From the NCBI GenBank assembly GCA_964564495.1, contig CAZMAW010000002.1, positions 75,364-139,363 on the forward strand: 64,000 bases of DNA. Reading direction: 5' to 3'. Below are positions 6,839 to 38,976 of this stretch, piece after piece. The notes under the pieces are model-generated. The model was not told the DNA's origin. It saw only the letters and a program-made list of their open reading frames with translations, and made no database searches. Numbering within the stretch: the first letter of the stretch is position 1; every line of letters starts with the position of its first letter. The translations under genes and the position numbers were made by a program. This DNA comes from an uncultured Candidatus Nemicrothrix sp. (GTDB lineage Bacteria > Actinomycetota > Acidimicrobiia > Acidimicrobiales > UBA8592).

Positions 6839-7054
6839 TTAGGTCGGTATTTCAACTCCATCTTCGCCGATGACTGATATAGCTCTACTCGGGCAGTTTC
6901 GCGCTGCTCGAATGCATTCCTCATCGGTAAGGGTGTGCGCTTCTTTGACGGTAGCGAGTTCCTCTTCATCAAATGCGAATGTTGAGGGATAGTCAGCGAC
7001 ACATTTGCCAGAACTCATACAGTCATCGACGTCTATTTGAATACGGTATGTCAT
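6839..7054 (-). CDS. single-cluster ferredoxin, likely [3Fe-4S]
   Basis: CMSSGKC...CP (CxxSxxC...CP); 71 aa. Confidence 0.88.
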   Translation of the reverse strand: MTYRIQIDVDDCMSSGKCVADYPSTFAFDEEELATVKEAHTLTDEECIRAARNCPSRAISVIGEDGVEIPT

Positions 7055-9129: not shown

Positions 9130-9182
9130 GCCTCAGAACCTATCCTTTCTTCTAGTGGTTGCAAATAACTGTGGGAAATAAT

Positions 9183-10382
9183 ATGAAGATTGAGCTTACT
9201 GACTGGTTGAGTGTCAAGGAGGCCTTTCGGTCGAAACACCTCCGGCAAGCGGGTTATACAGAAGGTGCAATTGTCATGGAAGGGACTCTTCTTGATCTGC
9301 ATGGGTTGGAGCATCGTGAACGACGCCGGTTAGAGAACCGGTTGTTTAGGCGAGAAATATTCAGCTATTGGGAACATCAGGTTCTAGGGAGGACGATTGA
9401 TGCGACCATACGGCCATTTGTGGAAAAGAGAAGGGGTGACCTTGCACAAATTGGATATCGATGTGCAATGAACTTGACGGCGACGATCGCAGGAATAGAC
9501 CAAGATCCCCGGAATGAGACTGAAACAGAGTTGCTGTACTCAAAGGTGAAAAAGTTTAGTGAGGGAGCAACCATAATGCATTCGACTCGAGACAAAGATG
9601 AAGTACGGTCTGAAGTAAAGGAAGCAATGACTTCGTTTCACAATGACTTTTACATACCATCGAAGACTCGACGTGAGGATGTTCTCTCAGATTTTATAGA
9701 TGGCAAAATATCTGAAGAAGAGTTGCCACGAGATGTTCTCACCACGCTTTTACGTAATGCCGAGGTGCTGATGCTTGACGACGATGTCGTTTTTCGCGAG
9801 ATCTGTTTTTACCTGCAAGCTGGCGCTCATTCAACTGCTAATGCTTTTACCCACACAGTCGATGATTTGTTTTCTTGGGGAGAAAAACATCCAAATGATT
9901 TAGATCTCGCTAGGAAAGACCTCTCGTTTGTTCAGAGATGTATGCACGAGTCTCTTCGGCTAAGTCCTGCAAGCCCCGTTGCCCTCCGTACACCTCTTGA
10001 GGACGTTGAATTATCAGACGGGACATTGTTGCCCCAGGGGGCGCATGTGGTTCTGAATTTGATCGAAGCAAATAGAGATCCATTAATTTTTGGTAGTTCA
10101 GCTGATGTTTTTGACCCGCATCGTAATGTACCTGATGGGGTTGCACGCTGGGGTATGAGTTTTGGTGCTGGGTCGCATGCTTGCGTCGGTGCAGAACTTG
10201 ATGGAGGTCTAGAAGTAGATCATGAACGACCTAATGAAGAAGCTTTATATGGAACTGTAGCGATCATGGTGCATGCTTTGCTCTCCGCAGGAGGGGCGAA
10301 AGATCCACACAATCCGCCCGTATTGGATCCTAATTCAGAAAGGAAACACTTCAGTAGTTATCCAGTCCAGTTTCTAAGTTGA
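9183..10382 (+). CDS. divergent cytochrome P450 (I-helix AGAHST)
   Basis: HRERRRL, HESLR, FGAGSHACVG; ATG 9183 (alternative TTG 9159). Confidence 0.88.
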   Translation: MKIELTDWLSVKEAFRSKHLRQAGYTEGAIVMEGTLLDLHGLEHRERRRLENRLFRREIFSYWEHQVLGRTIDATIRPFVEKRRGDLAQIGYRCAMNLTATIAGIDQDPRNETETELLYSKVKKFSEGATIMHSTRDKDEVRSEVKEAMTSFHNDFYIPSKTRREDVLSDFIDGKISEEELPRDVLTTLLRNAEVLMLDDDVVFREICFYLQAGAHSTANAFTHTVDDLFSWGEKHPNDLDLARKDLSFVQRCMHESLRLSPASPVALRTPLEDVELSDGTLLPQGAHVVLNLIEANRDPLIFGSSADVFDPHRNVPDGVARWGMSFGAGSHACVGAELDGGLEVDHERPNEEALYGTVAIMVHALLSAGGAKDPHNPPVLDPNSERKHFSSYPVQFLS

Positions 10383-10431: not shown

Positions 10432-11634
10432 ATGGCAGAAATCCTAATAACAAAACCCGATGATGCTCGTGAGTGCTATCGACATAAAAGCCTCAAGCAA
10501 GCCCTTTACGATGATGGTGAAGTAGTTATGGGAGATGCGATTATCAATTTACACGCAGACGAGCATCGTCAGAGAAGAAGACTAGAAAACCGCCTATTTC
10601 GCCGGGATACTTTCTTTGCCTACGAAAGAGAATTATTCCCATCCATTATTGAAGAGACTGTCCGCCCCTATCTAGATGAAGGGAGAGCTGAACTGGTTGA
10701 TTTCGGACACCAGCTGATGATGAATCTTGCTGCGGCAACTGCTGGCGTCGACCGACCTGACGGTACCGCTGAAGAAACATTTCGACTCTACGCATACATG
10801 ATGAATTTTATAGAGGCTGCGACCTTGGGTTTTTTCACCGGTGACAAAGACGCTAAACGACAGGAAATACAGGAAGCCATGGAAGCTTTCGATGCAGAAT
10901 TTCTAGAAGACGGGATTGCCCGTCGGAAAGGGTTGCTAGCGAACTTCGAAGCAGGAGAAATTGAGGAGGCAGATCTTCCGAAAGACGTTTTGATGGTTTT
11001 GTTGCGAAATCAAGACAAGATACCAATGAATAGGGAATCTTTAAGGCGCGAGATAGCCTTTTATCTTCTCGCTGGTGCCCACACCTCTGCAACAGCGTTT
11101 AATAGGGTCATTCACAATATTTTTAAATGGATAGAAGAACATCCAGAAGATATTGATCGTGCATATAACGATCGCTTGTTTCTTCAGCGATCTACACATG
11201 AAAGCATCCGACTGCAACCATCTTCCCCAACTGCTGCCCGTTGGGCTTTGGAAGATATAGATCTTAAATCAGGTATAAAAATAAGGGAGGGGGACCGTGT
11301 CGTGATTGACTTAGAGGCTGTGAACAGAGATAAGGAATTGTTTGGCGAAGATGCCGAAAAATTCAATCCTGATCGGGAATTACCAGATGGCGTAGCTCCT
11401 TGGGGTCTAAGTTTCGGCCAAGGAATGCATGCATGTATTGGACAGGACTTAGCAGTGGGGTTGGCCTTCTCCCCAGATAAAATTGTTGAAGACCATTTGT
11501 TTGGTTTAGTGCCAGTAGCGGTACAGACGATGTTCCTTAATGGCTGTCAGCCTGATCCCGAAAATCCACCGGAGATGGACGATTCAACGACAAGGCCTTA
11601 TTTTGGAAAGTACCCTGTCATTTTCGTAAGTTAA
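10432..11634 (+). CDS. divergent cytochrome P450 (I-helix AGAHTS), paralogue of 9183
   Basis: HRQRRRLENRLFRR shared with the neighbour, HESIR, FGQGMHACIG. Confidence 0.88.
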   Translation: MAEILITKPDDARECYRHKSLKQALYDDGEVVMGDAIINLHADEHRQRRRLENRLFRRDTFFAYERELFPSIIEETVRPYLDEGRAELVDFGHQLMMNLAAATAGVDRPDGTAEETFRLYAYMMNFIEAATLGFFTGDKDAKRQEIQEAMEAFDAEFLEDGIARRKGLLANFEAGEIEEADLPKDVLMVLLRNQDKIPMNRESLRREIAFYLLAGAHTSATAFNRVIHNIFKWIEEHPEDIDRAYNDRLFLQRSTHESIRLQPSSPTAARWALEDIDLKSGIKIREGDRVVIDLEAVNRDKELFGEDAEKFNPDRELPDGVAPWGLSFGQGMHACIGQDLAVGLAFSPDKIVEDHLFGLVPVAVQTMFLNGCQPDPENPPEMDDSTTRPYFGKYPVIFVS

Positions 11635-22696: not shown

Positions 22697-22788
22697 TGTC
22701 GTCTTTGTCTTGGACTGCTCATTTGTCAGGTGAATCATGAGAATTTACGATAGTCGAAGAAGTAATATGATCCAGAATGGAGATAGCG

Positions 22789-23664
22789 ATGGCAGAGGAA
22801 GCACCCTTACTTAATGATGAAGCGGACCATCCTCATGATGTGATGTGGGAAAATAATGGGCGCAGAATAGTTGCGATGGATTCAGCCCGTTATGTCGATG
22901 CTCGTAATCGTGATTGTGATGTTGTAGTGCCTTCGTCTTACCTCGGCGTTTTGCCAGCGCGTCTGATGGCACCGCATAAGCCTCGTGCGGTGATAGGGCA
23001 TGATGGGTGCATAGGGAAAGATGGTGCTGGTATAGCTGGGCTGTGGTATCTAGAAGCTCTTGGTATTCCTTCCGCAGCAGCAGACGGCATGAGCGCAGAG
23101 CTAGGTAATGGGATTGACCTGTATGAAACAGGAATAATTTCAAGAATAAATATTCTTGCTGAAAGAGCAGGAGTCTCAGAAGGGATGGCAGTCTCTGAGG
23201 CGGCAAAAATCCTCGCCCTTAATGATCCAGGAGATGTTACGGCAGGGACCAAGATACGTCGCGAATCTGTCGCTACATCAGATACTGGAAGAGAGATCAT
23301 TGTTACAGATTCAATTGTTTTCGCTTTGCCCGAAGACACAAACAATGTTCTTGTGACAGCAGGTCATACAGGTCGGTCCGGAGCGAAATTCCTTTTAGAA
23401 GTTTCCCCGCATGGATTTATCTGTTCCGATGGTGGAATGAGTAAGAACAAAGCTGGAATTGCTGGGCTAGAAATGACTGAAGCCCACGGTCTGGCTGGAG
23501 CCTGTTGCGATGCATGGAGTGCTCCTGTAGGAGATGCATTCAAAGCATACTACGAGGGTTCTATCAGCGCATGCAACAAACCAGCGCGGGACCGTGGGGT
23601 CGAAGTAGGAATGAGTATAAAAGATGCCGCCTTTGCACTTTTGCAAGAGGAAAAGAATGCCTAA
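22789..23664 (+). CDS. uncharacterised protein built from two homologous domains; paralogue of 38131..38976
   Basis: halves share DS...D-G...GIAGL...D...G...G.IS..N..A...GV..GM motifs. GGAG SD before ATG 22789 (alternative 22777). Confidence 0.8.
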   Translation: MAEEAPLLNDEADHPHDVMWENNGRRIVAMDSARYVDARNRDCDVVVPSSYLGVLPARLMAPHKPRAVIGHDGCIGKDGAGIAGLWYLEALGIPSAAADGMSAELGNGIDLYETGIISRINILAERAGVSEGMAVSEAAKILALNDPGDVTAGTKIRRESVATSDTGREIIVTDSIVFALPEDTNNVLVTAGHTGRSGAKFLLEVSPHGFICSDGGMSKNKAGIAGLEMTEAHGLAGACCDAWSAPVGDAFKAYYEGSISACNKPARDRGVEVGMSIKDAAFALLQEEKNA

Positions 23665-24052
23665 ACAATCCACATCGGAACTGACAGGTGAATTTTGGAA
23701 ACAGGCTCAAGCCCAAATACTTGTTCGTCCTGTCTGCAGGTCCTGTGGGGAAAATTTCTTCATTCCCCAAGTCATCTGTCCGAGTTGCCACTCGGATACT
23801 TGGAACTACCAAGAAAGTTCTGGAGCGGGTTCAATTTATAGCTATACAGTGATTCATCGTCCACCCGACCCCAGTTTCCCTAGCCCGCTTTTCGTCGCTG
23901 ACATTGAACTGGATGAAGGGTGGAGGATGTTCTCATGGATAGTTGACTCACCGGCCACTGAAATCGAAATTTCTGCAAGAGTTAAAGTGACCTTCATCGA
24001 TTTTAAAGGAAGAAGCCTTCCAGCTTTTGAAATTGTTCGGGATAAATCATGA
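23657..24052 (+). CDS. DUF35/ChsH2-type Zn-ribbon plus OB-fold protein
   Basis: CRSC...CPSC, SGAGSIYSYTVIH; overlaps both neighbours. Confidence 0.88.
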   Translation: MPKQSTSELTGEFWKQAQAQILVRPVCRSCGENFFIPQVICPSCHSDTWNYQESSGAGSIYSYTVIHRPPDPSFPSPLFVADIELDEGWRMFSWIVDSPATEIEISARVKVTFIDFKGRSLPAFEIVRDKS

Positions 24053-25584
24053 ATGTCGGGTTGTCTATCCATCGAAACGCAGTTCGGTCTCCAAAGTCAC
24101 CCGCAATTTTTGGTAGCGCTCAATTGACCTATGCGCAATTGGACAGAAGAAGTAATCAAATCGCTCATTATCTGAATACATTCCTAACTAAAGGTGACCG
24201 TATTGCACTATTTGTAGCGAATCGTCCTGAGGTAGTCGAAGTTATGGGTGGGATCGCAAAGGCTGGAGGTATCTACGTCGGTTTAAATTTTAGGCTTGGT
24301 TCCCTTGAACTACAGCAAATCTTTGAGAACTCAGAACCCTCATTAGTGATTACAGACGAAGAGCATTTAGGGCAAATTGAAATGTTGGCTAAAAAAATTA
24401 ACATTCCGATATTGAATCTAGATTCAAAAAAGTGGGAGGACGAAATAGCCGCGATGCCTGATCTTGTTCCAGATACCCTTCATGAGGTCCGCTATGACGA
24501 CGACTTTTGTATTGTCTATACAAGCGGGACGACCGGAAGGCCGAAAGGCGTCCTTTTTGATCATGGACGGGCTATTCAACACGCCACAGTTGCGTGCATG
24601 GAATACGAAATCGATTCAGAGGCTCGATACCTGATACAAATTCCTCACAATTCGAGCGTAAATATTACTATCGTCCCCTGTCTTACTGTAGGGGCAGCTT
24701 TGTCGTTTCGCGATAGTCGGAATTTCGATCCTGTAGGGTTTGCTCGAGAAGTTGAAGAGCAAGGGGTGACCCATAGCTTCCTCGTACCTACTCAGTTGAT
24801 GAGGATTCTTGATCGGCTACCGCATGAAGCTGATCAAAAATTTTCCGGATTAGTCACATTAGGGTACGGATCTTCCCCCATCTCGCCTGACCGCCTACGA
24901 GAGCTTGTAGATCGTTTCGGATGTATATTCAATCAACTTTATGGGATGGCAGAAATTGCTTCTATAGGGACAATTTTACGAAAGAATGATCACATGATTG
25001 GGCTAAATGATCGCCCCGAACTTCTCTCTTCATGCGGTCAACCTTCCCATGCTGTGCACGTTCGAGTAGTTGACAAGAGCGGAGAAGATGTTCCAATCGG
25101 AGATAGGGGAGAAGTAATTTTCGCGGGCCCTCATGTTATGAAGGGTTATTATCGAGACACTCAACGCACAGAAGAGGTATTAATTGACGGGTGGATGCAT
25201 TCTGGCGACATAGCCGAAGTAACAGAGGACGGGTTCATCTTTATTGTTGATAGGAAAAAGAACCTTATTATTCGAGGTGGCTTGAACATCGCGCCGACAG
25301 AGATAGAGAATGTCCTGTACAGGCACGAAGATGTTCTTGATGCAACAGTGATAGGCGTCCCTGATCCTGAATGGGGCGAAGCGGTTGTAGCTGTTGTAGC
25401 TCTCACTCATGAGGCTAATGCGACAGCAGAAGACCTTAGGGTCCATTGTCGCAACTCGGAATTAACCTCAATCAAAATACCTGAACGAATTGAAATTTGG
25501 GAGGCACTACCGAAAAACGCAGTAGGGAAGATATCAAAGAATGAAATCCGGGAAAGTTTTTGGGGATCTGGAAGGCAAGTCTAA
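24049..25584 (+). CDS. acyl-CoA synthetase (AMP-forming)
   Basis: YTSGTTGRPKG, YGMAE, HSGD, DRKKNLIIRGG. Confidence 0.93.
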   Translation: MNVGLSIHRNAVRSPKSPAIFGSAQLTYAQLDRRSNQIAHYLNTFLTKGDRIALFVANRPEVVEVMGGIAKAGGIYVGLNFRLGSLELQQIFENSEPSLVITDEEHLGQIEMLAKKINIPILNLDSKKWEDEIAAMPDLVPDTLHEVRYDDDFCIVYTSGTTGRPKGVLFDHGRAIQHATVACMEYEIDSEARYLIQIPHNSSVNITIVPCLTVGAALSFRDSRNFDPVGFAREVEEQGVTHSFLVPTQLMRILDRLPHEADQKFSGLVTLGYGSSPISPDRLRELVDRFGCIFNQLYGMAEIASIGTILRKNDHMIGLNDRPELLSSCGQPSHAVHVRVVDKSGEDVPIGDRGEVIFAGPHVMKGYYRDTQRTEEVLIDGWMHSGDIAEVTEDGFIFIVDRKKNLIIRGGLNIAPTEIENVLYRHEDVLDATVIGVPDPEWGEAVVAVVALTHEANATAEDLRVHCRNSELTSIKIPERIEIWEALPKNAVGKISKNEIRESFWGSGRQV

Positions 25585-26738
25585 TGGGTATCAAAGCCGC
25601 AATAGCTGGTGTCGGGCTAACTGAACAAGGTAAAACGCTAGACCGCACAAACATTTCCATATGCGTAGAAGCTCTGAGCTTGGCCTTGCAAGATGCAGGT
25701 ATGACAATAGATGATGTTGACGGAATTGCTGCCCGATGGCCTGGACCGGGAGGAACGTTATTTGATCCTGGGGTCGTTGACTGGTCTGGGACCCTTGGTA
25801 CCTCATTCCGTTGGGTATGTGATACTTATCCCCAAGGCGTTCCAGGCCTTCTGGACGCAGCTGCCGCTGTTTCAGCTGGCATATGCGAGGTTGCAGTCGT
25901 TTTTGGAGGTCAAGCGGGAGTCCTTCAAAAATCAGACCTTGCCGCCTATACGAGGCCAGAAAATGAATTTGTGGCCCCTTGGGGACTATTTACAGCAGCC
26001 CACTTTGCAATGATTGCACAGGTTTACTTCAACCGTTATAACCCTGACCGTTATCGGCTTTCTGAGGTGGCAGCGACAATACGTAATGCAGGGAATGTGA
26101 ATCCTAGGGCAGTAATGTATGATCGAGGCCCATATGAACCTGGTGATGTTACCGATTCTCCCCTTATATGTGAACCATTTCATCTTCTCGATCTTTGCTT
26201 AGCCACTGAAGGTGCATCTGCAGTCGTAGTGACATCTATCGAGAGAGCGAGAGACTGCCCACATACTCCAATTAAGATTTTGAGTGGAAGCTCTGAATGG
26301 CATAGGCAACAATATGTCAATCCCCCTCGTTATGACGAAGTAGGCCACATAGGTAAAGACGCCTTTTCTCGAACGTTCGGTGGAGCGGGGTTGGCACCTG
26401 GCGATATCGATGTATATGAGCTTTACGACATAAACACTTGGGAAGTAGTTCGACAGTTCGAAACGATGGGCTTATGTGATGAAGGAGAAGGAGTAGACTT
26501 TCTGCACGAGAATGGGATCGCTTGGAATCAGAAATATCCAACCAATACTGATGGGGGACTTCTTTCTTTCAGTCATACCGGTTGGGGGGGTCCGACATTA
26601 AAGATCGTCGAAGCAACTAGTCAACTCCGAGGCATAGCTAAATCAGGACAAGTCGAAGGTGCGGAGACAGCTTTAGTCACTGGAGCGGGTTCAGGAGCGC
26701 AGTACTTTAACGCAGCAATTTTATCAATTGACCGGTAG
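25584..26738 (+). CDS. SCP2/Ltp2-type thiolase-fold protein lacking the nucleophilic Cys
   Basis: AAIAGVG, ELYD, NTDGGLLSFSH; YPQG where the thiolase C-A-S-G motif is expected; TAATG coupling to the ligase. Confidence 0.85.
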   Translation: MGIKAAIAGVGLTEQGKTLDRTNISICVEALSLALQDAGMTIDDVDGIAARWPGPGGTLFDPGVVDWSGTLGTSFRWVCDTYPQGVPGLLDAAAAVSAGICEVAVVFGGQAGVLQKSDLAAYTRPENEFVAPWGLFTAAHFAMIAQVYFNRYNPDRYRLSEVAATIRNAGNVNPRAVMYDRGPYEPGDVTDSPLICEPFHLLDLCLATEGASAVVVTSIERARDCPHTPIKILSGSSEWHRQQYVNPPRYDEVGHIGKDAFSRTFGGAGLAPGDIDVYELYDINTWEVVRQFETMGLCDEGEGVDFLHENGIAWNQKYPTNTDGGLLSFSHTGWGGPTLKIVEATSQLRGIAKSGQVEGAETALVTGAGSGAQYFNAAILSIDR

Positions 26739-26773
26739 TTAGTTCGCACCATAATTTCGAAACTACTAATCTG

Positions 26774-28039
26774 ATGACGAGGATAGGAGAAGTCATGGAA
26801 ACTATAAGGGACATGGAACCACCCCCCCACATTGTCGGAATTCAACATTTTGTTGACTACGAATCGGTAGACGAAATTCTTAAATCTAAAGACTTCCGCC
26901 AAGGTTCACACCAGGAAAGTCAACCTTTCTTTGGAGACTCTCTCCTAACCATTGACCATGGTGATCATTTCGATCGGAGGAGGCTTGAGGCTCCACTCTT
27001 TCGGAAGGAAGCTTTGGAATATTATGAACGTGAAGAATTGCTCCCGTTGATAGCGAGATCTCTTGAAGAATGTGAACAGAATCGCGGGCAGGATGGTTTA
27101 GTAAGGGCAGATCTCTGTCTCCTAGTACGGAATATGTTGGCCCGAATCTCCGCAGTTACGACAGGCATAGACGGTGTTGACACACCTGAGCGCACCGATG
27201 CTTTCAGGATGTATGTTGAGCAATTAGGGACAGGTGCGACTGTGGAATGGTCAACGGAAGACCATGATGAGGTGATCGATCGAATTCTTGCTATCCGAGA
27301 GGGGTTTGTTAATGAATTCTATGGCCCTTCTGTAGAGCGCCGGCGTAAACTGATCTCGAAGTTTCAAGCAGGTGACATATCAGAGGAGGACCTCCCCCAT
27401 GATTTGTTAACTCTTATGTACCTTCACTGGAATGACGACTGGGATGACGAGCTGCCCTTACGGGAAGCGACCTTATACACAGTTGCCTCGAGTCAGACGA
27501 CAACTCATGCGGTCCCACACATGATGATGCATCTTCATGAATGGTTTGAAGCACATCCTGAAGATTATGAAAAAAGATTCGATCGAGAGTTCCTAAAACG
27601 CGCTGGACATGAAGCAATTCGGCTTCATCTGCCCTCCCCAGCTTTACTGAGAATAGCCCTTAAGGACGTCACTTTGAGTAGCGGGATTGAGATAGCTGAA
27701 GGGGAACGTGTCGCATGTTTATTCACTCCGGCGAATCGTGACATTTCCGTCTTCGGAGATGATGCAAAGTCTTTTGACCCCTATCGTGAAGTTGCCGATG
27801 TGAAACCTTGGGGATTCGCTTTTGGAGGGGGAGAACATACATGCATTGGTCGTACATTGGTAACAGGACTTTCCGCAAGAACTGACGGTGATGAAGGAAC
27901 AGATGGTACTTTGGTCAATATTGCCCTCGCACTTTTCGAAGCTGGATTAGAACTCGATCCAGAAGACTGGCCGGCATTTACCGAGCTCAGTTATCACGAT
28001 GCTTATGGTAGCTTCCCAGTAATTTTAAGAAGTCTTTAG
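26774..28039 (+). CDS. divergent cytochrome P450 (I-helix ASSQTT), same family as 9183/10432
   Basis: HFDRRRLEAPLFR, HEAIR, FGGGEHTCIG; alternative start 26795. Confidence 0.88.
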   Translation: MTRIGEVMETIRDMEPPPHIVGIQHFVDYESVDEILKSKDFRQGSHQESQPFFGDSLLTIDHGDHFDRRRLEAPLFRKEALEYYEREELLPLIARSLEECEQNRGQDGLVRADLCLLVRNMLARISAVTTGIDGVDTPERTDAFRMYVEQLGTGATVEWSTEDHDEVIDRILAIREGFVNEFYGPSVERRRKLISKFQAGDISEEDLPHDLLTLMYLHWNDDWDDELPLREATLYTVASSQTTTHAVPHMMMHLHEWFEAHPEDYEKRFDREFLKRAGHEAIRLHLPSPALLRIALKDVTLSSGIEIAEGERVACLFTPANRDISVFGDDAKSFDPYREVADVKPWGFAFGGGEHTCIGRTLVTGLSARTDGDEGTDGTLVNIALALFEAGLELDPEDWPAFTELSYHDAYGSFPVILRSL

Positions 28040-28046
28040 GGGGAAG

Positions 28047-28247
28047 ATGCCTGACTCCGAGTTTCACGTCAAAATCGACACATTAATTTGTGAGGGTACA
28101 GGTTATTGTGTGCGCGTAGTGCCAGAAATATTTGGCATTGGAGGCGATGGCTTGGGTGAAGTTCTTGTCGACAGGCCAGACTCGAATTATACAGAAGCCC
28201 TCGAAGAGGCAGCGACGCTATGCCCAACCAGGGCGATCACATATTGA
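28047..28247 (+). CDS. single-cluster ferredoxin, likely [3Fe-4S], partner of the upstream P450
   Basis: CEGTGYC...CP (CxxTxxC...CP); 7 nt after the P450. Confidence 0.9.
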   Translation: MPDSEFHVKIDTLICEGTGYCVRVVPEIFGIGGDGLGEVLVDRPDSNYTEALEEAATLCPTRAITY

Positions 28248-38130: not shown

Positions 38131-38976
38131 TTAATTTAGTAAAAGCAAAGACGCTGCACCCGCAGCTGGCATTCCAATCGTTACTCCTTTAGTAGCTGCA
38201 TGGCTATTCACAGCAGAAATCACTCCATCGTGGTAATGGGATAACCCACTGCCCATTCTCGCATACCGTGCATCTATCGTCGCGCCAGGGAGGCCTTCTT
38301 CTTCAACAATATAAAGCCCTGCCATTCCTGAGTCGTCCATTCCCTTACCGCCATCTGAGCAGATGAATCCCCGTGGCCTACATCGGAGAAGGTATGGAAC
38401 GGCAGAACGACCGGTATGGCCAGCAGTAACAAGCACATTTCTCCCAGTGTCCTCGTCGGTGCCAAACGCAATGGAGTCCGTAGCAATAACGTACCTGCCA
38501 TCTGGTGAGGTTTCCATAATGGTCCGATTTGTTATCTCAGAGGCACTTGCCGCTTCCGGATCATTTTCCAAAAGCACGGGTGCAGCATCTTTAACACTCA
38601 TACCAACCGTTACTCCGCAATCAAGGGCTAGCTGATTCATGAAGCTAATTACACCATTCTCATATAGGTGCACCCCATTCCCCAAATGTGCGGTCATTAC
38701 ATCGGCGACAGCTGCGGGGATTGAAAGGGCTTCCAAATACCAGAGGCCAGCAATAGCTGAACCTTCTGGACCTATACCGCAATCCATCCCGATCGCTCCA
38801 CGTGGCGCGTGTTCTGCAATAAATCTGGCAGGTAGGACGCCACAATACGACGAGTTGACACACACATCTTTCCCTGTGTTGCGTTCGTCAACGTCGTATG
38901 CCGAGTCCATAGCCATAACTGACCCTCTACCTGACTTTGATTCAAAAACTTTCGTTTGCGTATCAATCGAAGACAT
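38131..38976 (-). CDS. uncharacterised two-domain repeat protein; paralogue of 22789
   Basis: MDSA, GVLPAR, AGLWYLEAL, NVLVTAGHTGRS and GFICSDGG shared with 22789. Confidence 0.8.
   Translation of the reverse strand: MSSIDTQTKVFESKSGRGSVMAMDSAYDVDERNTGKDVCVNSSYCGVLPARFIAEHAPRGAIGMDCGIGPEGSAIAGLWYLEALSIPAAVADVMTAHLGNGVHLYENGVISFMNQLALDCGVTVGMSVKDAAPVLLENDPEAASASEITNRTIMETSPDGRYVIATDSIAFGTDEDTGRNVLVTAGHTGRSAVPYLLRCRPRGFICSDGGKGMDDSGMAGLYIVEEEGLPGATIDARYARMGSGLSHYHDGVISAVNSHAATKGVTIGMPAAGAASLLLLN

Follow-up and report, generated by a model that had tools for sequence, protein, structure and literature searches.

The pairing of an acidic residue with an alcohol in the I helix is the textbook proton-delivery device of oxygen activation by cytochromes P450 (P450s). 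The pair is typical of these enzymes and not obligatory; CYP51, CYP255 and CYP152 do without it. To our knowledge, loss of the acid is otherwise confined to isolated families (CYP51, CYP255, CYP152) and to enzymes in which no O2 is activated. Here we describe a P450 gene of a divergent, uncharacterised family and the ferredoxin gene that follows it. Both are located in a stretch of 64,000 nucleotides (nt) from a marine actinobacterium, an uncultured Candidatus Nemicrothrix sp. (assembly GCA_964564495.1, contig CAZMAW010000002.1, positions 75,364 to 139,363 of the forward strand), hereafter the window, and positions are given in its own numbering. Glutamine replaces the acid in this P450, and from sequence comparisons we predict, with a probability of roughly 60%, an ordinary ferredoxin-driven, O2-activating class I system that works without the canonical acid.

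In CYP51, a non-acidic histidine occupies the acid position and belongs to a salt bridge to which a role in proton delivery is ascribed (PMC7908997). Ferredoxins of the CXX?XXC(X)nCP class, including the Thr type, are the [3Fe-4S] partners of P450s in Mycobacterium marinum; those tested bind [3Fe-4S] clusters and support P450 turnover (PMC6237146). Marine Acidimicrobiales are rich in P450s, and PMC10205998 proposes them as the principal carriers of these enzymes in the dark ocean.

Identity of the P450 and its oxygen-binding motif

Judged from its motifs and its modelled fold, the open reading frame (ORF) at 26774 to 28039 is a genuine P450 with predicted heme binding. Translation probably starts at ATG 26795 rather than at 26774, because a GGAG motif stands 6 nt before it and nearly all homologues have 414 amino acid residues (aa). 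The Pfam family PF00067 matched residues 264 to 362 only (E 9e-10), scoring 38.3 bits where the cut-off is 22.8 bits. The heme-thiolate loop with its cysteine, the K-helix ExxR and the meander motif F334-D-P-Y-R338 are present, and the ERR triad with E280 and R283 is complete. The three heme-propionate ligands R69, R293 and H355 are intact and, with the heme loop, ExxR and FDPYR, 96–100% conserved family-wide; F350, G353, H355, C357 and G359 are kept in 95–98% of the family. In the C helix, the 164 family members treated below conserve H65 (97%), R68 (93%), R69 (96%) and R70 (87%). The triple Arg (68–70) thus named, Glu231 and Trp257 are further family-wide conserved residues, the latter two being family-specific. 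The signature RRRLE..LFR, which a preliminary description of this DNA had singled out, is present as this family's own version of the heme-propionate motif HxxxR, which is universal in the C helix.

The same description had read an ASSQTT motif in the I helix and placed the Gln codon at 27494–27496, where it was indeed found. HMMER aligned VASSQTT to VAGNETT of CYP125MRCA (8vxi) and of 4rm4; Gln241 therefore corresponds to the acid position and Thr242 to the alcohol position. Instead of the acid-alcohol pair (D/E-T/S), this P450 has Gln241-Thr242, with the alcohol kept and the acid gone. One helical turn past Gln241 (+4) lies His245.

An AlphaFold2 model computed with 62 homologues as input (predicted local distance difference test, pLDDT, 87.7; predicted template modelling score, pTM, 0.87) adopts the P450 fold. 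In this model the L helix is split into a helix (360–364), a loop (365–378) and a second helix (379–389). Foldseek related the model to hundreds of solved P450s with template modelling (TM) scores of 0.62–0.70 and identities of 15–20%. The top match by E-value was P450 BioI in complex with acyl carrier protein (ACP; 3ejb, E 1e-14) and the top match by TM score was GcoA (6ycp, 0.70). To us, scores of 0.66–0.70 seem low for class I P450s.

The assembly (2.18 Mb, 33 contigs, about 95% complete) was surveyed for P450 ORFs and contains 26, of which four form an atypical group and 22 are ordinary. The atypical four have only 44–64 residues ahead of the C-helix His, compared with 80–131 in the ordinary ones; the part missing in the alignment comprises helix A and strand beta1-1, before the B helix. 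They share the C-helix motif HxxRRRLExxLFR and carry an insertion of 9–11 aa after CxGxxLxxGL that is absent from all ordinary P450s. The short N-terminus, the C-helix motif and the post-Cys insertion had been listed as common to the present gene and those at 9183 and 10432, and the comparison with the 22 ordinary P450s bears this out. The present gene had also been counted as the third member of its family, which is true within the window, but a fourth lies on another contig (C18). A truncated B–C loop (substrate recognition site 1, SRS1), first read from the secondary structure of the AlphaFold2 model, was dropped since the B–C region is of normal length in the alignment. Likewise, the segment D-G-D-E-G-T-D-G of the insertion was considered as a Ca-binding loop and rejected, with only G378 conserved family-wide.

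About 8.5 kb before the window begins, the genome also encodes a P450-like ORF of 432 aa (contig C2, 65601–66899, + strand), in which the heme loop is FGFGKPSIHPAVPKG and the Cys ligand is missing. It directly follows another P450 (C2, 64152–65597) and may be a pseudogene or encode a P450 derivative that carries no heme. With a rough estimate of the gene number, P450 density amounts to about 12 per 1000 genes, 2–4 times that of the marine Acidimicrobiales in PMC10205998.

Residues at the acid position across the family

When 1.84 billion cluster representatives (50% identity) were searched exhaustively with phmmer, 392 proteins passed E<=1e-30, and relaxing the limit to E<=1e-3 raised this number to no more than 1868. 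The family is sizeable, with at least 392 clusters at 50% identity, and far from mainstream P450s. Single-sequence and profile searches of the PDB found no solved structure within it. The profile matches reached 81 bits at most, covered the C-terminal half only and all stopped at profile position 357, just ahead of the insertion. NCBIfam models gave far sub-threshold matches only, cluster members were labelled "cytochrome P450" or not at all, and no named CYP family was found among them. Literature searches retrieved no paper on this P450 family or gene cluster.

The acid position was occupied in 139 full-length representatives by G (29), N (17), Q (15), S (15), R (12), H (12), D (10) and L (8), the rest being scattered, with a single E. 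A FastTree phylogeny was calculated for 164 family sequences and 21 ordinary P450s of the same genome, and the latter split from the family with a support of 1.0. Seventeen residue types occur at the acid position in the 164 family sequences, with D or E in just 13 of them, and Fitch parsimony requires at least 76 changes on the tree. The alcohol position, in turn, is T or S in 156 sequences (95%), and 20 of the 21 ordinary P450s have D or E at the acid position. This family-level variability argues that the acid is not needed in the scaffold of these enzymes, and the earlier suggestion that it is dispensable thereby gains comparative support. The position appears to be free between subfamilies and fixed within each, with the alcohol retained.

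Within the orthogroup of the window P450, 117 of 119 full-length close homologues (53–92% identity) read A-[SAT]-[ST]-Q-T-T-T-H and the other two AAIDTT. The corresponding clade on the tree comprises 23 tips (support 0.98), 21 of them with Gln; the two Asp tips are nested and represent reversions. From both observations it follows that Gln is under purifying selection in the orthogroup and exchangeable with Asp. Orthologues retain it from 92% down to 47% identity in Acidimicrobiia, Actinomycetes, Alphaproteobacteria and Betaproteobacteria. Of 35 cases with Gln, 26 also have His at +4; these cases are phylogenetically non-independent. Because the residue is conserved within the clade, Gln241 probably still matters, be it in proton or water handling, possibly with His245, or in substrate contact. 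In the metagenome-assembled genome (MAG) of a close relative, Acidimicrobiaceae SP83 (L033, 7010–9794), the P450-ferredoxin pair is followed by a second P450 copy, 76% identical to the window P450, which has ASSQTT and a heme loop reading FAVGGGEHSCIG.

Linkage of the P450 to its ferredoxin

The ferredoxin gene starts 7 nt past the P450 stop, with a Shine-Dalgarno-like GGGGAAG site in front. Its product contains the motif C15-E-G-T18-G-Y-C21 (CEGTGYC, 28089–28109) and, further on, C59-P60 (CP, 28221–28226). It thus has the CXX?XXC(X)nCP arrangement, with three Cys, a non-Cys residue at '?' and then CP, and by analogy with the M. marinum homologues its cluster is probably [3Fe-4S].

Loci of the P450 were scanned in one genome per species, and their ORFs were called and scored against the window proteins. 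This yielded 78 loci, 75 of them with enough downstream sequence. The ferredoxin was encoded directly downstream of the P450 in 56 of the 75 and within 3 kb in 64. It is adjacent in 20 of 21 planktonic Acidimicrobiales, where the variable residue in CxxXxxC is T, in 28 of 30 sponge-associated (Poriferisocius-like) loci (V) and in all four MAGs of Alpha- and Betaproteobacteria (I). Other Actinomycetota have it adjacent in four of eight loci (T, A) and in three more behind a second family P450 (L). Pseudonocardia, with none of 12, has a His-type (H) ferredoxin 1–3 kb away in four. The ferredoxin is the sole neighbour that recurs in every clade but Pseudonocardia. On a sponge-symbiont chromosome (L048) and in a betaproteobacterial MAG (L093), the pair stands alone amid unrelated genes. 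Genes for EamA-type transporters lie near both of these lone pairs (L048, 6078–6905, − strand; L093, 3483–4346, + strand), and in the Pseudonocardia locus L079 a major facilitator superfamily (MFS) transporter is encoded upstream and transcribed divergently. Such neighbours could hint at an imported substrate or be there by chance.

This distribution points to a dedicated redox partner of the P450. The preliminary description had taken the coupling as a sign that the enzyme still receives electrons, with a linkage lost in homologous loci as the contrary outcome; the survey instead found it conserved, even where the other neighbours are unrelated, and so supports that view comparatively. Its designation as a Thr-type ferredoxin holds for the CxxTxxC motif in the window, with Thr being specific to one clade. 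In the genome, only two of the 26 P450s have an adjacent ferredoxin. All 26 are served by just six ferredoxins of the single-cluster kind and by a single reductase, which has a Reductase_C domain and is of the putidaredoxin-reductase type. The small iron-sulfur ferredoxin linked to the P450 and the reductase elsewhere in the genome correspond to the class I organisation.

A further single-cluster ferredoxin in the window (6839–7054, − strand, 71 aa) is of the Ser type (CMSSGKC...CP) and located about 2.1 kb upstream of the pair of His-type P450s, on the opposite strand. Nocardioides hwasunensis (L097), an Actinomycetes MAG (L099) and Nakamurella leprariae (L105) have two tandem family P450s followed by one Leu-type ferredoxin (CQGLGYC); in N. 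leprariae, the second P450 has Ala at the acid position (AASATT). Two family P450s that differ at this position may thus share one ferredoxin.

Operon and pathway context

The P450 and ferredoxin genes close an operon of six tightly packed genes, which overlap or lie 7–56 nt apart (Table 1). The operon ends at the ferredoxin because the next gene is convergent. Further downstream are genes for a cupin, a heme-oxygenase-like diiron oxidase, an acyl-CoA dehydrogenase (ACAD), a short-chain dehydrogenase/reductase (SDR), a CMD-family protein and more ligases.

Table 1 Coordinates of the operon genes, P450 motifs and related genes elsewhere in the genome. Positions refer to the window unless a contig (C8, C18) is named
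Feature	Position	Strand	Remarks
Unknown internally duplicated two-domain protein, first operon gene	22777..23664	+	Overlaps DUF35 gene; sub-threshold Pfam matches only
DUF35 protein (ChsH2-type zinc ribbon + OB fold)	23624..24052	+	4-nt overlap with ligase gene; PF01796 E 4e-17, PF12172 E 1.7e-6; weak BbsA match
AMP-forming acyl-CoA ligase	24049..25584	+	1-nt overlap with next gene; PF00501 E 1.4e-72, PF13193
SCP2/Ltp-type thiolase-like protein	25560..26738, probable start ATG 25584	+	56-nt gap to P450 gene; PF22691 E 2.5e-31
Cytochrome P450, divergent uncharacterised family	26774..28039	+	Longest ORF 421 aa; start at ATG 26795 gives 414 aa
C-helix motif H65-F-D-R-R-R-L-E-A-P-L-F-R77, HFDRRRLEAPLFR	26966..27004	+	Heme-propionate His/Arg and family-specific triple Arg
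I-helix oxygen-binding motif A238-S-S-Q241-T242-T243	27485..27502	+	Gln codon CAG 27494–27496 at acid position, Thr242 at alcohol position
K-helix ExxR, E280-A-I-R283	27611..27622	+	E280 98%, R283 100% conserved in 164 family members
Heme-thiolate loop F350-G-G-G-E-H-T-C357-I-G359 (FGGGEHTCIG)	27821..27850	+	Cys codon TGC 27842–27844
Post-Cys insertion S367-ARTDGDEGTD-G378, SARTDGDEGTDG	27872..27907	+	Interrupts L helix
Single-cluster ferredoxin, 66 aa, isoelectric point 4.2	28047..28247	+	Fer4_15 E 1.4e-9, Fer4_13 E 2.3e-8, both above cut-off
Paralogue P450, His at acid position (AGAHST)	9159..10382	+	35% identity; short N-terminus and post-Cys insertion
Paralogue P450, His at acid position (AGAHTS)	10432..11634	+	34% identity; short N-terminus and post-Cys insertion
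Fourth atypical P450, Ser at acid position (AGASTS)	C18:10296-11498, outside window	+	Short N-terminus and post-Cys insertion
Ferredoxin reductase, putidaredoxin-reductase type, 403 aa	C8:~94151-95360		Reductase_C domain; adjoins another ferredoxin gene; unlinked to operon

The upstream run of an unknown protein, a DUF35 protein, a ligase and a thiolase-like protein, as named in the preliminary description, was confirmed. DUF35 proteins usually pair with SCP2-type thiolases and aldolases. The ligase showed sub-threshold matches to fatty-acid and steroid-24-oyl-CoA ligases. Relatives of the thiolase-like protein in the PDB were 4u4e, 9myr, 6ok1 (annotated as Lipid-transfer protein), which we take to be the steroid side-chain aldolase Ltp2, and 7pxp (BbsB). 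In pairwise alignments, the spacing around its expected nucleophilic Cys differs from that of canonical thiolases; the protein may thus be of the aldolase type and no true thiolase. The AlphaFold2 model of the first-gene protein (pLDDT 84) had no PDB fold match better than E 0.14 and offered no clue to the substrate. For this type of protein, which is also encoded at 38131–38976 (− strand), there were weak hints only, to DUF1805 and TA1206. It accompanies the Gln-type P450 in three lineages distant from one another, including the loci L077 and L095.

Recurring homologues of the pathway genes were found in the Pseudonocardia loci L075–L085. A ligase and an SDR are encoded near the P450 in 9–11 of the 12 loci of this genus, and L077 additionally has the unknown protein, the DUF35 protein, the thiolase-like protein and an ACAD. 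The P450 of an Acetobacteraceae MAG (L095) has genes for the DUF35 protein, thiolase-like protein, diiron oxidase, unknown protein and ligase nearby. Five sponge-type loci carry only a distant thiolase/DUF35 pair, 2.5–4 kb upstream. The earlier proposal of a CoA ester, or a compound leading to one, as the substrate thus holds in part. Judging by gene neighbourhoods, the association with CoA metabolism is genuine, yet limited to certain lineages, because the gene set recurs in planktonic Acidimicrobiales, Pseudonocardia and the Acetobacteraceae MAG and not in sponge-type or betaproteobacterial loci.

A sigma-70-like sequence (TTGACC-16-CATAAT, 10/12) at 26728–26755 (+ strand), in the 56-nt gap ahead of the P450 gene, would as an internal promoter make the P450-ferredoxin pair a separate transcription unit. 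It was not taken as evidence, as the scan was not above chance (6 sites against 9.0 in shuffled sequence).

Proposed mechanism and alternative explanations

In the proposed system, NAD(P)H would reduce the single putidaredoxin-reductase-type reductase of the genome (contig C8), which would pass the electrons to the dedicated, probably [3Fe-4S] ferredoxin (28047–28247). From there, two electrons would reach the P450 and allow O2 activation and oxygenation of the substrate. The job of Asp or Glu, namely the gating or relay of protons to the iron-bound dioxygen, may fall to Gln241, assisted by Thr242, by ordered water and perhaps by His245. In planktonic Acidimicrobiales, the P450 would most likely act first and oxidise a hydrophobic compound, either to a carboxylic acid or to a product that is then converted to one. 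Activated to its CoA ester, this acid would undergo a beta-oxidation-like shortening. This order follows the analogy of CYP125, FadD19 and Ltp2-ChsH2 in the breakdown of steroid side chains.

Several observations weigh against this proposal. The GcoA mutant with a Gln-Thr pair (QT) was inactive through both the monooxygenase and the peroxide route (PMC11842817), so that a Gln-Thr pair does not by itself guarantee activity. In none of the 12 Pseudonocardia loci is a ferredoxin adjacent. The pathway gene set is absent from about 30 sponge-type and three betaproteobacterial loci; the pathway role may thus apply to certain lineages only, or the setting within a 64-kb catabolic island may make part of the linkage circumstantial. 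The conservation of Gln in the scanned loci is partly built in, since the scan relied on two patterns, of which one was [TSF]QTTTH[AT]xPH; the ferredoxin linkage is free of this, and the evidence on Gln that is independent of the scan comes from the 119 close homologues, the 139 representatives and the tree of 164 sequences. Finally, the whole family, with no solved member, is described here from sequence comparison and structure prediction.

The missing acid could instead be a form of tuning in an enzyme that is likewise ferredoxin-driven, in which a slow second protonation would prolong the life of the ferric-peroxo species for deformylation, C-C cleavage or another non-hydroxylating reaction. 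The family retains Thr while the acid varies, the operon partners are of a C-C-cleaving type (SCP2 thiolase/aldolase with DUF35), and CYP51, with His at the acid position, finishes its cycle by C-C cleavage (PMC7908997). We nevertheless regard such tuning as unlikely: it is an inference only, the hypervariability of the position (G, N, S, R, L and others) would equally fit substrate contact, and for the C-C cleavage in CYP51 itself Hargrove et al. 2020, as cited in PMC7908997, favours compound I. Another possibility concerns the order of events. The P450 might act after the ligase, on a thioester-tethered substrate (acyl-CoA or carrier protein), as P450 BioI does on acyl-ACP. The CoA ligase and thiolase-like genes just upstream in the same operon, the truncated N-terminal region that sets the family apart and the BioI-ACP complexes as best Foldseek matches (3ejb/3ejd/3eje, E 1e-14) would suit such a substrate. 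We know of no described P450 that acts on a CoA ester, though, and the Foldseek E-values of BioI and dozens of class I P450s are less than ten-fold apart. With no ligase near the pair in about 30 sponge-type and three betaproteobacterial loci, a tethered substrate seems improbable.

Operation as a natural peroxygenase, which would use H2O2 through the peroxide shunt like SyoA of CYP255, deserves consideration for the I helix. SyoA and GcoA combine Gln-Glu with His at +4 (Q252/E253/H256), and SyoA uses the peroxide shunt only (PMC11842817); the window P450 has Q241...H245, and GcoA gave the highest TM score in the fold search. Yet identity to GcoA is only 19%, and Thr stands at the alcohol position where CYP255 requires Glu, a Glu-to-Thr exchange having killed the activity of both GcoA and SyoA (PMC11842817). 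The ferredoxin found next to the P450 in most loci would moreover be superfluous for a peroxide-driven enzyme, and we consider this explanation very improbable. Least credible of all is a decaying or non-catalytic paralogue. The genome is rich in duplicates, with 26 P450s and one P450-like ORF without Cys ligand, and the Pfam match is weak; but conservation extends to all heme ligands, P450 and ferredoxin co-evolve, and orthologues of 92% to 47% identity keep Gln across Acidimicrobiia, Actinomycetes and Alpha-/Betaproteobacteria.

The prediction of a ferredoxin-driven class I system may be extended, tentatively and with considerable doubt, to the lineage as a whole. All of its clusters would then activate O2 with electrons from ferredoxin after abandoning the canonical acid. 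Protons might be delivered or gated by another route, e.g. a Gln241-His245-water relay or substrate assistance, or the ferric-peroxo species might be held for a nucleophilic C-C cleavage that feeds the adjacent thiolase/aldolase pathway. If this were true, the gene pair may be a tractable representative of an entire P450 lineage. Cultured strains of Pseudonocardia (among them P. thermophila DSM 43832 and P. parietis DSM 45256), Nocardioides and Nakamurella carry orthologues, which makes the enzyme accessible to experiments. The family offers, ready-made by nature, a series of variants at the residue that mechanistic studies of P450s have mutated most often. It is also abundant in marine Acidimicrobiales, and its substrates bear on the breakdown of recalcitrant dissolved organic matter.

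Comparison with known systems

A P450 with a small ferredoxin is a known type; the variant with an unconstrained acid position, a split L helix and a truncated N-terminus appears to be undescribed. P450s are usually assigned to one CYP family at an identity of at least 40%. Affiliation with CYP255 does not hold by this measure, with 19% identity to 6ycp (Foldseek) and GcoA outside the 60 best sequence matches. Electrons reach GcoA through a fused three-domain reductase, GcoB, and not through a small ferredoxin as encoded here. The CYP255 enzymes GcoA and SyoA, soluble bacterial O-demethylases of aromatic catabolism, resemble the window P450 in being bacterial, soluble and catabolic, in the Gln at the acid position and in the His at +4, but they have an essential Glu at the alcohol position, where the window P450 has Thr (PMC11842817). 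SyoA is peroxide-driven. No solved P450, CYP255 included, aligns beyond the Cys loop into the inserted segment.

CYP51, the sterol 14-alpha-demethylase, likewise is an O2-activating enzyme driven by redox partners without the acid (His-Thr), and the His at this position is shared by the window paralogues (PMC7908997). The window P450 differs from it in the Gln, the L-helix insertion and the truncated N-terminus, and its context is catabolic, without sterol-pathway genes; no specific relationship to CYP51 is detectable.

The ferredoxin is similar to the Thr-type Fdx2 of M. marinum in size, acidity, Thr motif and linkage to a P450 (PMC6237146). In contrast, the orthologous ferredoxins vary by clade between T, V, I, L and A, of which Val, Ile and Leu are not listed in PMC6237146.

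By sequence, CYP125 and CYP142 are the best PDB matches of the window P450 (CYP125MRCA, 8vxi, E 5e-10). The match is weak and limited to about 130 residues of the C-terminal half; both families keep E/D-T and have no insertion, and the window P450 belongs to neither. The operon nonetheless parallels the set CYP125/FadD19/Ltp2-ChsH2(DUF35), in that a P450 and a CoA ligase are joined by an SCP2-type thiolase/aldolase, with 6ok1 as a relative, and by a DUF35 protein. It differs in that no other steroid-degradation genes are found in the operon of the window.

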